Shown here one piece after another: positions 2,840-4,646 of a stretch of DNA of 64,000 bases. The notes beneath the pieces were generated by a model, which ran no database searches, was not told the origin of the DNA, and saw only the letters and a program-made list of their open reading frames with translations. The position numbers and the translations under genes are program-made. Source of the DNA: Escherichia phage UFV-AREG1; the sequence record KX009778; one strand, 5' to 3'. Each line of letters begins with the position of its first letter. Within the stretch, counting starts at the first letter, position 1.

Positions 2840-3122
2840 CTTGCGGCAACCTTGTCGGGGTTCCACCTGCTAAGGCAAGTGTTTGTACGAAACGCCGGGA
2901 TTCGAACCCGGTTATTAAGCAGTTGACGCTACTCAATATTTTTAAAAGGCCATATCTCGACCATATCCGAACGTTCCGTCAAAAACGCTACTCGGCTTAT
3001 GGCAAAGATATTTCCTCGAATCGATAATTCGGTGCGCCGTTTCTGCTGTGATGTAAGAGGGCATCAATAAACGCAAAGATTATTAACGCAATTCCTTACT
3101 CAGGGAACATCAGTCCGACGAC
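2840..3122 (-). ncRNA. Candidate structured small RNA region (tRNA-like T-arm; possible stable-RNA locus or tRNA remnant)
   Basis: About 280 bp with no credible ORF on either strand; minus strand carries CCGGGTTCGAATCCCGG (canonical T-stem/loop) at 2895..2911 with a possible acceptor pairing CGGAACG/CGTTTCG, but no complete cloverleaf; several local hairpins. Confidence 0.3.
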
Positions 3123-3677
3123 TTACCGGTAGCGACCCGGTTTCTCATTTGGTATTTCAAATTGTGTAGATTTAGTATCTAATTTTTTAACTATGGAACT
3201 TATGTCATGAAAGAAAAACCATTCGCCATTTATATGGTCCTGATTATAAATGCTGTGCATATATTTTTCAAGTTCTACTGCATCCTGGGAATATCTAAAT
3301 GATACTATTTTAAAACTTTTAAACGGTGAAAATGTATTTGCTGTTATAACTCTAACATCAGGTTCTATACTTCTTCCTATTTTATAATAATTAGGATTTG
3401 TAGTATCTACCATTATGTATACGAAAGCCTGTCGATAGCTTTTTTCTATATCAAATTCATCTTTAAATTTCAAAAGATTTAGGGCGGCAGTCCTACAAAA
3501 TACTTTCCATTTTGACAAGCGTTTAGCTTTAGTCATAGAAAAGAATTTTTTCTTATCTGTTATTTTAAGAAAAGCAACATTTTCAATTAGTTCTTGTGTT
3601 ATTTCAAAATTACCATGGTATATTAATCCAGCTTTTATAGCCAAATTAATTTGGTCCCAGTCTACATCACTTCTCAT
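3123..3677 (-). CDS. T5orf172 / GIY-YIG-like domain protein, 184 aa
   Basis: C-terminal half carries FVYIMVDTTNPNYYKIGRS ... R ... E..E..MH ... NGEWFFF, matching the GIY-YIG-like T5orf172 signature; N-terminal 85 aa unassigned. Confidence 0.6.
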   Translation of the reverse strand: MRSDVDWDQINLAIKAGLIYHGNFEITQELIENVAFLKITDKKKFFSMTKAKRLSKWKVFCRTAALNLLKFKDEFDIEKSYRQAFVYIMVDTTNPNYYKIGRSIEPDVRVITANTFSPFKSFKIVSFRYSQDAVELEKYMHSIYNQDHINGEWFFFHDISSIVKKLDTKSTQFEIPNEKPGRYR

Positions 3678-3698
3678 AATATTATTCTCTCAATAATT

Positions 3699-3775
3699 TG
3701 GCCAGGGTGAAAGGATTCTAACCTTTAACCTGCGGTTTAGAGGACCGCTACTCTATACAATTGAGTTACACCCCG
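3699..3775 (-). tRNA. tRNA-Arg (anticodon TCT), CCA encoded
   Basis: Manual cloverleaf: acceptor CGGGGTG/CACCCTG, D-stem ACTC/GAGT, anticodon stem GCGGT/ACCGC with loop CCTCTAA, T-arm AAAGG-TTAGAAT-CCTTT. Confidence 0.8.
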
Positions 3776-3901
3776 TAATTAGTTCACAGCAATACCTACT
3801 CCAACAATCAAGATGTCTTCACACGAAATTAAGAGAAAAGTGATCAGTTCAACCCTTATAATCGCGTCAAGTAGATATTAATGTGACAACTGTCACAAGT
3901 T

Positions 3902-3976
3902 TGGCGGACATGCATGGATTCGAACCATGGACCAATTGATTAACAGTCAACTGCTCTACCACTGAGCTACACATCC
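3902..3976 (-). tRNA. tRNA-Asn (anticodon GTT), CCA encoded
   Basis: Manual cloverleaf: acceptor GGATGTG/CATGTCC, D-arm GCTC-AGTGGTA-GAGC, anticodon loop CTGTTAA, T-arm CATGG-TTCGAAT-CCATG. Confidence 0.75.
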
Positions 3977-3980
3977 AAAT

Positions 3981-4067
3981 TGGTGGGGAGTGATGGAGTC
4001 GAACCACCCGAGTCGCAATGACAATGGATTTACAGTCCACACCGCTACCTCTACGGGATAACTCCCC
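3981..4067 (-). tRNA. tRNA-Tyr (anticodon GTA), type II with long variable arm, CCA encoded
   Basis: Acceptor GGGGAGT/ACTCCCC, anticodon stem GTGGA/TCCAT with loop CTGTAAA, long variable arm, T-arm GGTGG-TTCGACT-CCATC; D-arm pairing is irregular. Confidence 0.6.
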
Positions 4068-4076
4068 AAATTAATT

Positions 4077-4153
4077 TGGTGACCCAGACCAGATTTGAAC
4101 TGGTAACCTTTCCCTTATGAGGGGACTGCTGCTAACCATTGAGCTACAGGGCC
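4077..4153 (-). tRNA. tRNA with CAT anticodon (Ile-lysidine type or elongator Met), CCA encoded
   Basis: T-arm ACCAG-TTCAAAT-CTGGT, anticodon loop CTCATAA; acceptor stem has one mismatch and one G-U. Confidence 0.6.
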
Positions 4154-4154
4154 T

Positions 4155-4230
4155 TGGTGCTGATTGACGGAATCGAACCGCCGACATCCTCATTACAAGT
4201 GAGGTGCTCTACCTACTGAGCTAAATCAGC
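4155..4230 (-). tRNA. tRNA-Thr (anticodon TGT), CCA encoded
   Basis: Acceptor GCTGATT/AATCAGC, D-arm GCTC-AGTAGGTA-GAGC, anticodon stem CCTCA/TGAGG with loop CTTGTAA, T-arm GGCGG-TTCGATT-CCGTC. Confidence 0.8.
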
Positions 4231-4232
4231 AA

Positions 4233-4319
4233 CGGAGGCGATAGGATTTGAACCTATGAGTCGCCGGAGCGACTGCCGGTTTTCAAGACCGGTGCATTAA
4301 ACCACTCTGCCACGCCTCC
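4233..4319 (-). tRNA. tRNA-Ser (anticodon TGA), type II
   Basis: Acceptor GGAGGCG/CGCCTCC, anticodon stem CCGGT/ACCGG with loop CTTGAAA, long variable arm, T-arm ATAGG-TTCAAAT-CCTAT; no encoded CCA. Confidence 0.75.
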
Positions 4320-4321
4320 AG

Positions 4322-4395
4322 TCTCCATACAAGGATTTGAACCTTGGACCTCCTGATCCCAAATCAGGCGCTCTACCAAACTGAGCTACACGGAG
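4322..4395 (-). tRNA. tRNA-Pro (anticodon TGG)
   Basis: Acceptor CTCCGTG/TATGGAG (two G-U), D-arm GCTC-AGTTTGGTA-GAGC, anticodon stem CCTGA/TCAGG with loop TTTGGGA, T-arm CAAGG-TTCAAAT-CCTTG. Confidence 0.75.
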
Positions 4396-4405
4396 TAAAT
4401 TAAAT

Positions 4406-4479
<74 letters not shown>

Positions 4480-4485
4480 AAACTT

Positions 4486-4572
4486 TGGTACGAGAAGTGG
4501 GACTCGAACCCACAAGGAAATCATTCCGCAGCATTTTAAGTGCTGTGCCTTTACCAATTTGACCATTCTCGC
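4486..4572 (-). tRNA. tRNA-Leu (anticodon TAA), type II, CCA encoded
   Basis: Acceptor GCGAGAA/TTCTCGT, anticodon stem CAGCA/TGCTG with loop CTTAAAA, long variable arm, T-arm TGTGG-GTTCGAGTC-CCACT region. Confidence 0.75.
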
Positions 4573-4573
4573 G

Positions 4574-4646
4574 CTGGGAATAAAGGACTCGAACCTTTGC
4601 ATCTAGCAGTCAAAGTGCTATGCCTTACCAACTTGGCTAATTCCCA
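4574..4646 (-). tRNA. tRNA-Gln (anticodon TTG)
   Basis: Acceptor TGGGAAT/ATTCCCA, anticodon stem TAGCA/TGCTA with loop CTTTGAC, T-arm AAAGG-TTCGAGT-CCTTT. Confidence 0.75.

Follow-up and report, generated by a model that had tools for sequence, protein, structure and literature searches.

What is the gene that separates the last tRNA gene from the stable-RNA genes in the tRNA region of a T4-like phage, and how did it come to lie there? The question arises for the 64,000-nucleotide (nt) stretch of Escherichia phage UFV-AREG1 (sequence record KX009778; the whole stretch is called the window below), whose closest DNA matches are Tequatrovirus genomes (94–97% identity) and in which this place is taken by an open reading frame (ORF) of 184 amino acids. 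A previous sequence-only reading had described the encoded protein as carrying a C-terminal domain of the T5orf172 flavour, and had suggested either a mobile nuclease in the niche held by the homing endonuclease SegB in T4 or a function directed at tRNA or other RNA. Our analysis identifies the gene as a putative homing endonuclease of the T5orf172 family, here in a Tequatrovirus, and thus as a known kind of element and no new system. We consider it likely that it is a free-standing homing endonuclease gene from the T5orf172 branch of the GIY-YIG superfamily, which arrived as a recombined cassette.

The ORF was found as described, running from an ATG start to a TAA stop on the minus strand; its GC content is 29.7%, compared to 35.9% for the window. 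Using the Pfam gathering cutoffs (22.3 bits for MUG113, PF13455; 20 bits for T5orf172, PF10544; 22.6 bits for GIY-YIG, PF01541), residues ~85–155 matched both MUG113 (E = 2.7e-9, 37.9 bits) and T5orf172 (E = 3.4e-6, 27.9 bits), which agrees with the C-terminal domain proposed before, while the generic GIY-YIG model stayed below its cutoff (E = 0.12, 13.1 bits). By these matches, the protein is a member of the GIY-YIG clan via T5orf172 and lies outside the core PF01541 family model. PHROG 5032, a family of unknown function, covers the whole protein (2.1e-59, residues 1–176 of 1–177/178), including an N-terminal helical domain with an AALNLLK motif, and this full-length match places it in a two-domain subfamily around T5.069 of phage T5. 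The subfamily is small, as an E-value below 1e-10 was reached by only 27 of the 2,869 representative hits of an exhaustive hmmsearch. NCBIfam gave no family for the protein, and a sequence search with the family profile against all chains of the Protein Data Bank gave zero matches even at E ≤ 10.

Structure prediction with AlphaFold2 (pLDDT 91.9, pTM 0.86) revealed two domains. The N-terminal one is characterized by an invariant W57 and the motif CRTAALN.LK.K, and is presumed to be the specificity or DNA-binding domain. The C-terminal domain is predicted to adopt the beta-beta-alpha-beta-alpha core fold of GIY-YIG nucleases, and every match to this half in structure comparison was a DNA enzyme. 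All motifs listed in the sequence-only reading are present (FVY87IM, YY98KIGRS, R109, E135/E137, MH141, and GE152WFFF). Within the domain, Y87, Y98-K-I-G101, R109, E137, H141, and E152 are invariant, and, judging from the amino acid sequence alone, the elements VY87IM, Y98KIG101, R109, and E152 are spaced as in the GIY-YIG superfamily, in which GIY and YIG are ~10–11 residues apart, the catalytic Arg comes ~8 residues behind the YIG glycine, and a Glu binds metal. Both halves of the protein are conserved among twelve close homologues (54–99% identity), and the C-termini of family members diverge after a conserved F-x-[IL]-P.

The surroundings of the ORF point to insertion at a defined site. 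ARAGORN detected an array of ten tRNA genes on the minus strand (3699–4646). The last is tRNA-Arg(UCU); the ORF, in the same orientation, follows it after a 21-nt leader that is conserved in other T4-like carriers as AATTxATGAGxATAA.ATTATG. Its position at the 3' edge of the tRNA array, as stated before, is therefore correct in that the ORF follows the last tRNA gene, but it is not the edge of the stable-RNA operon, since rnaD, rnaC, and a terminator follow downstream. The positions of rnaC and rnaD were transferred from the annotations of T4 and phage Aplg8, because Rfam, even at permissive thresholds, recovered only the tRNAs and gave no match for either RNA. T4 has the order segB, 5 nt, tRNA-Arg, 1 nt, rnaD, 6 nt, rnaC; the ORF fills the junction of tRNA-Arg and rnaD, which is 1 nt wide in T4. 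segB is not present in the window, where tRNA-Asn and tRNA-Arg are 126 nt apart.

Both ends of the insertion can be placed precisely (Table 1). The T4 junction reads GGGATACCA, a single A, and ATGAGAAACC (with a longer rnaD side, ATGAGAAACCGGG), and its counterpart in the window is GAAATACCAAATGAGAAACC. The ORF ends with the codons GAA ATA CCA AAT GAG AAA CCG GGT CGC TAC CGG TAA. As the letters of its last eight codons and the stop are identical to those that follow tRNA-Arg and open rnaD in T4, and are common to the flanks of Aplg8 and VR25, the junction base together with the start of rnaD supplies this tail. The tail is limited to the context of the window and VR7, and is an accident of the insertion site, because the C-termini of the family differ beyond F-x-[IL]-P. 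Directly before it, ATACCA aligns with the ...ACCA end of resident tRNA-Arg genes in relatives without the ORF. Compared to Tequatroviruses of the Aplg8 type, two sharp breakpoints are found at 3790/3791 and at ~3145. Between them, Aplg8 carries tRNA-His, its own tRNA-Arg, and an unrelated reading frame of ~115 amino acids (orfX); in the window, this interval is made up of 15 unique nt, another tRNA-Arg, the leader, and the T5orf172 ORF. No T4 late-promoter box was found near the ORF, and sigma-70-like promoter matches around it occur at background frequency. Lacking a promoter of its own, the ORF would depend for its translation on the long precursor transcript of the tRNA/stable-RNA operon, and as its stop lies in the 5' end of rnaD, processing of this precursor should limit its expression, as has been proposed for segB.

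Table 1. Coordinates of the ORF, its domains, and the adjoining features in the window.
Feature	Position	Strand	Basis
Two-domain T5orf172-family ORF, 184 amino acids, full-length relative of T5.069 (stop included)	3123..3677	minus	ORF list; Pfam MUG113/T5orf172; PHROG 5032; tblastn; AlphaFold2
N-terminal domain, residues 1–80	3438..3677	minus	Four helices (7–15, 28–37, 42–47, 50–73); basic, isoelectric point 9.3
T5orf172/GIY-YIG-fold nuclease domain (predicted), residues 84–170	3168..3428	minus	Beta-beta-alpha-beta-alpha-beta-beta-alpha
Read-through tail, last 8 codons NEKPGRYR and TAA stop	3123..3149	minus	Encoded by junction base and rnaD 5' end
ATACCA, codons I175–P176, right-hand cassette junction	3150..3155	minus	Equals T4 tRNA-Arg 3' end; VR25 and mobillu empty sites
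Leader, 21 nt, Shine-Dalgarno-like GAGAG, directly after tRNA-Arg CCA	3678..3698	minus	Junction extraction, 10 loci
tRNA-Arg(UCU), ORF-linked allele, part of exchanged cassette	3699..3775	minus	ARAGORN; Rfam tRNA 59.3 bits; alignments; identity matrix
Carrier-only 15 nt	3776..3790	minus	Alignment with Aplg8; left breakpoint 3790/3791
rnaD (species 2 stable RNA), conserved right flank	3031–3148	minus	Aplg8 and T4 annotations mapped
rnaC (species 1 stable RNA), downstream operon member	2886–3024	minus	Aplg8 and T4 annotations mapped
Intrinsic terminator ending the tRNA/stable-RNA transcription unit	2803–2835	minus	Aplg8 annotation mapped exactly; terminator scan

A comparison of gene content in the tRNA region across phages, as the sequence-only reading had advised, revealed presence/absence polymorphism in five lineages. 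Within Tequatrovirus, 9 of 1,015 records cover at least 80% of the 2-kb region, and tblastn gave 9 records (8 phages) with the ORF at 99% identity. Full-length relatives were further found by tblastn in Mosigvirus (ESh27, AV110, and ECO111 5-P; 78%), Jiaodavirus (KpV477 and KP1079; 59%), Winklervirus (X20; 57%), and in Muldoon, PS2, and 92A1 (51–56%); in Gaprivervirus, VR7, VR26, and ESCO10 are the only carriers among VR7-like phages (protein identity 91–95%). T5-like relatives were missed by a word-indexed protein search and were recovered by tblastn against the phage collection and by exhaustive hmmsearch; they comprise RN29, Stp1, phiR2-01, and My1 (39–40%) and a second group including T5 itself (29% over residues 14–170). 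A search of viral contigs for related loci returned a single locus, VR26. Presence is sporadic in other lineages too, with the ORF in 4 of 188 KpV477-like records and, at the RN29 site, in 13 of 394 T5-like records.

Pairs of carriers and non-carriers locate the insertion in each case at the ends of a tRNA-Arg gene, with flanks up to 97–100% identical right to the junctions, and the linked allele travels along with the ORF. In Gaprivervirus, tRNA-Arg of VR25 ends in ...CTCGACCA and is immediately followed by rnaD, while VR7, which has the ORF, reads ...GAAATACCA before the same local rnaD start. In Jiaodavirus, UTI-K1 has tRNA-Leu, tRNA-Arg, and tRNA-Thr, and KpV477 has tRNA-Leu, a different tRNA-Arg, 19 nt, and the ORF, whose TAG stop falls on bases 8–10 of tRNA-Thr. 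The Mosigvirus mobillu shows the order tRNA-Met, tRNA-Arg, orfX, compared to tRNA-Met, ORF, orfX in ESh27; here, tRNA-Arg has been replaced, and the ORF ends with ATACCA where the mobillu tRNA ended with CGACCA. Among T5-like phages, DT57C is collinear with RN29 through rnaX and then has its resident tRNA-Arg, while RN29 has the ORF and a different tRNA-Arg that overlap by 39 nt. The ORF of these phages lies between tRNA-Arg and rnaX, an annotated stable RNA of 636 nt (DT57C, L020 232–867; RN29, L005 ~1330–1975) that is conserved at >90% between the two.

Transfer between genera and decay are visible as well. The window and VR7 have ~1 kb in common (tRNA-Arg, ORF, rnaD, rnaC, and terminator) at ~95% identity, with flanks that cannot be aligned on either side. 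Phage teqskov carries the same cassette of tRNA-Arg and ORF (L003 2500–3198) in an array without tRNA-Asn, -Tyr, -Met/Ile, and -Thr, so that the cassette occurs in differing tRNA-array backgrounds. The copy of Serratia phage 92A1 (L021 1189–1719) has an in-frame stop at the codon of the invariant W57, is annotated as two hypothetical proteins, and is by its sequence a nonsense pseudogene. In VR26 (L007 2501–3160), the ORF encodes 219 amino acids; rnaD and most of rnaC are deleted in this phage, and past residue ~176 the frame runs over the deletion to end just ahead of the operon terminator.

The second component of the cassette is the tRNA gene. All examined relatives with at least 45% identity (the window, VR7, VR26, KpV477, X20, Muldoon, 92A1, and the metagenomic contigs L022 and L024) begin 10–21 nt past a tRNA-Arg(UCU) gene, with the exception of the ESh27 type, and the T5-like relatives at ~40% identity overlap tRNA-Arg(UCU) on their 3' side. 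tRNA-Arg of the window is 97% identical to that of VR7 from another genus, and only 64–66% identical to those of T4 and Aplg8. The same pattern holds more widely: within a genus, tRNA-Arg of carriers and non-carriers is 61–78% identical, compared to 92–97% for the flanks, and between genera, the carrier-linked alleles of KpV477, X20, and Muldoon reach 89–92%. Distant T5-like paralogues adjoin other tRNA genes and follow the same trend: tRNA-Asn of T5, a carrier, has 64% identity to that of the non-carrier TrudiRoth, and tRNA-Lys is 97% identical between two carriers and 74% identical to that of T5.

From the insertion anatomy, distribution, domain family, fold, conserved motif residues, exchange between genera, linkage, and decay observed here, we infer nuclease activity, a DNA substrate, a target site, and homing, and the earlier proposal of a mobile nuclease in a niche equivalent to that of SegB gains support from the insertion anatomy, the sporadic distribution, and the linkage to tRNA-Arg. 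A site within or at the tRNA-Arg(UCU) gene is the probable target. A cassette of variant tRNA-Arg(UCU), 21-nt leader, and ORF would have entered by recombination and replaced the resident Tequatrovirus tRNA-Arg. In a mixed infection, recombinational repair off the carrier genome would copy the nuclease gene and the linked tRNA-Arg allele into the broken genome, and the carrier itself would be protected from its own nuclease by having a diverged tRNA-Arg allele or, as in the ESh27 type, by having lost the gene. A conserved tRNA gene would offer a target common to many phages. Two caveats apply to the allele pattern: tRNA-Arg alleles of non-carriers also differ among themselves (63% and 62% identity), and a pair of control tRNAs show divergence among T5-like phages as well (64–68%). 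The locus is mosaic in any case.

A more far-reaching version of the homing model is possible, and we put it forward tentatively. Nuclease and tRNA could form a two-part "replace-and-rescue" drive that destroys the tRNA-Arg(UCU) gene of rivals (or, less likely, the tRNA) and supplies an immune functional allele; paralogues specialized on tRNA-Asn, tRNA-Lys, and other tRNAs would then make tRNA genes the homing sites of a T5orf172 lineage common to T4-like and T5-like phages, and much of the mosaicism of tRNA alleles in phage tRNA clusters would go back to these nucleases as a main source.

Among the alternatives to homing, the one that survives best is a passenger or domesticated gene in the tRNA-Arg slot as a recombination hotspot, encoding a sequence-specific DNA binder or nuclease, for example for regulation or for the exclusion of competitors, like the domesticated T5orf172 protein CapR of PLE; self-mobilization would then have been lost or never have existed. 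The slot has indeed had other occupants (segB in T4 and the unrelated orfX in Aplg8, mobillu, and ESh27), tRNA-Arg varies among non-carriers too, and both domains are conserved down to the 29% identity with T5.069, which argues for purifying selection on the protein. Domesticated T5orf172 proteins are, moreover, on record in the literature. The rarity of the gene in each genus, the cross-genus cassette at 95%, and the pseudogenized copy nevertheless fit gain and decay better than a fixed gene, and no variation is seen at any motif residue expected to act in catalysis, so that we regard this explanation as unlikely. As to the slot itself, orfX (MKGNVYLVVHDL...) holds the place between tRNA-Arg and rnaD in most Tequatrovirus and Mosigvirus genomes (Aplg8, L001 1951–2314, unannotated; mobillu, L019 979–1323; ESh27, L008 2542–2886), and no NCBIfam family was found for it. 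With segB of T4, the alternative neighbours of this one tRNA-Arg gene number at least three.

Even less probable is a role at the RNA level, in which tRNA-Arg(UCU) or its precursor, be it of the host or of a competitor, would be the substrate of the nuclease, and the linked tRNA a resistant replacement, similar to a toxin and its antidote. This reading draws on the physical linkage of the gene to tRNA-Arg(UCU), which is near-perfect across two phage families, and on phage tRNAs that escape tRNA-targeting defences through altered anticodon loops, a topic of work cited within PMC10644984. The linked tRNA-Arg of the window has several unusual features: C33 in the anticodon loop (CCUCUAA), no G18-G19, and A56 in the T-loop TTAGAAT. 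U33 is near-universal in tRNAs, and C33 in its place would suit an RNA-level role; it might be linked to the evasion of anticodon nucleases. A decaying pseudo-tRNA, as A56 and the missing G18-G19 could indicate, was considered and dropped. As the resident tRNA-Arg of the Mosigvirus mobillu has the same D- and T-loop features, and the stem differences are compensatory, the tRNA is probably functional; C33 alone remains odd. Against an RNA substrate stand the structural matches, all of which are DNA enzymes, and, to our knowledge, all characterized GIY-YIG nucleases cut DNA. Furthermore, the ESh27 clade has the gene without an adjacent tRNA-Arg, and the distant paralogues at other tRNA genes, beside HNH homing endonucleases of the same layout, suit homing at the DNA level. 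The tRNA- or RNA-directed function offered as an alternative in the sequence-only reading thus finds no support.

A defence or counter-defence nuclease against satellites or co-resident elements, like Odn of ICP1, or a relative of PD-Lambda-1 is highly improbable. The defence nucleases PD-Lambda-1 and PDC-S57 were tried and rejected, since they match in the nuclease domain alone (E 3.5e-5 to 8e-4); the protein has 184 amino acids compared to ~490 in PD-Lambda-1, where an N-terminal region precedes the T5orf172 domain, its own N-terminal domain differs, and its context is a phage tRNA operon rather than a defence island, with no neighbour resembling a partner gene. Just as little credence is due to an inactive remnant, an intact-looking frame heading for loss. 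In its favour are the nonsense stop in 92A1, the fusion of the VR26 frame over deleted sequence, and the accidental eight-residue rnaD tail of the window copy. The window copy is nevertheless intact over its whole length, has lost none of the residues that are invariant in the family, and has 99% identity to the copies of 8 other phages.

With homing thus preferred, the gene can be set beside known systems. Its closest architectural counterpart is T5.069, which has the same two domains, i.e., an N-terminal helical domain with R.AALNLLK.K (R.AALNLLKYK) and a C-terminal T5orf172 domain, a similar size, and the same layout of tRNA, ~21 nt, ORF, and stop inside the next tRNA. The two share only 29% identity, however, and their settings differ: T5.069 belongs to a siphovirus (Demerecviridae) and is flanked by tRNA-Cys and tRNA-Asn, and the window gene is tied to tRNA-Arg(UCU) in T4-like myoviruses. 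With its 172 amino acids, T5.069 is presumably the ORF172 that gave Pfam PF10544 its name, and similarity to ORF172c of BF23 had already been recorded by the annotators of VR7. In RN29 and My1 (~40%), the gene lies upstream of tRNA-Arg(UCU), unlike the downstream gene of the window.

In position and presumed behaviour, the gene resembles T4 segB. SegB recognizes a 27-bp site with a TpsiC-arm motif, cleaves tRNA genes at their 3' ends, on the 3' side of CCAR, and secures nearly 100% inheritance of itself and the neighbouring tRNA genes; the segB stop lies at the tRNA-Arg processing site, which has been proposed to limit expression, and the same was proposed for T5 endonucleases (PMC2330249). 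Both genes adjoin the same tRNA-Arg in the same transcription unit and have their stop at a stable-RNA processing site, and cutting at tRNA 3' ends by SegB parallels the ...ACCA junction of the window cassette. They differ in that segB lies on the opposite side of tRNA-Arg, and that SegB combines an N-terminal GIY-YIG domain with a C-terminal NUMOD3 DNA-binding region in 221 amino acids, so that domain order is reversed and size differs, as the sequence-only reading had noted. Activity and homing have been demonstrated for SegB, and those of the window protein are putative. With the nuclease domain at the C-terminus and an hhalign probability of 0.08 against T4 SegB, a Seg-type identity was ruled out; the window gene and segB are analogous, without homology in their architecture. 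For a hairpin that would occlude the ribosome-binding site, of the type known from segB, support was weak (-14 kcal/mol, z = -1.94), and it is not claimed.

The predicted catalytic domain also relates to more distant nucleases. By comparison of the structural model, I-TevI, SLX1, UvrC, and EndoII appear to have the same catalytic fold. The spacing Y-x10-Y and G-x7-R with a conserved Glu, read here from the letters of the protein, corresponds to that of I-TevI. Core GIY-YIG nucleases differ in that the window protein stays below the PF01541 threshold, and no conserved Asn, as a counterpart to Asn90 of I-TevI, is evident after the Glu. In contrast to I-TevI and other core enzymes, the nuclease domain is C-terminal and, in the AlphaFold2 model, appears packed against the N-terminal domain, with no long linker as a tether. 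The T5orf172 putative homing endonucleases of vibriophage ICP1 and the derived proteins Odn and CapR (Seed laboratory) have the same nuclease domain family and place DNA-binding and nuclease domains at opposite termini, as is presumed for the window protein, and the T5orf172 genes of ICP1 resemble the window gene in variable presence, decay, and position at boundaries of genetic exchange. The ICP1 proteins have other N-terminal domains and target essential genes, compared to the candidate tRNA targets here.

T5orf172 genes are widely regarded as homing endonuclease genes; glutamate-dependent nuclease activity has been shown in one case, and homing has been demonstrated for none (PMC10448857). 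T4 is stated to have no T5orf172 genes (PMC10448857), and a carrier in Tequatrovirus therefore widens the range of hosts known for the family. The cassette brings such a gene into T-even phages, the origin of classical homing tests (mixed infections of T4 and T2, mapping of cleavage in vitro), with natural carrier and non-carrier relatives in at least four T4-like genera, and the tRNA-Arg(UCU) gene as a concrete candidate target. It offers a specific explanation for the large differences that otherwise near-identical phages show here in gene content and in the tRNA-Arg allele, and makes one two-domain nuclease subfamily common to the tRNA clusters of Straboviridae and Demerecviridae. For annotation, "hypothetical protein" in ~12 phage records could be replaced by "putative T5orf172-family homing endonuclease".

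Several minor observations concern the tRNA region. A stop inside a downstream tRNA or rnaD was rejected as a hallmark of the T5orf172 family: in TrudiRoth, two HNH genes annotated as putative homing endonucleases (L015 395–976 and 4354–4869) end 5–10 nt inside the downstream tRNA (Asp and Ser), so that borrowing a stop from the next tRNA is a habit of endonuclease genes in tRNA clusters in general. tRNA-Asn of the window (3902–3976, minus strand) shows many differences from that of Aplg8 (L001 2585–2659), apparently compensatory in stems, next to a nearly identical 126-nt spacer; the divergence is a further sign of allele-level mosaicism of single tRNA genes. The preferred site of SegB in T2L lies within tRNA-Asn. 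The spacer from tRNA-Asn to tRNA-Arg (3776–3901, minus strand) is conserved in Aplg8 and REP2 and opens with the perfect inverted repeat TGTGACA-GT-TGTCACA. A promoter-like TTGAAA-17 nt-TATAAT with 11/12 matches (3243–3271, minus strand) is found within the last third of the ORF, oriented towards rnaD and rnaC, whose transcription it could drive, although promoter-like matches in the region occur at chance frequency. Finally, the tRNA with a CAU anticodon (4077–4153, minus strand) was called tRNA-Met by ARAGORN, its counterpart is annotated as tRNA-Ile in T4 and REP2, and we take it to be a lysidine-modified CAU tRNA reading AUA.

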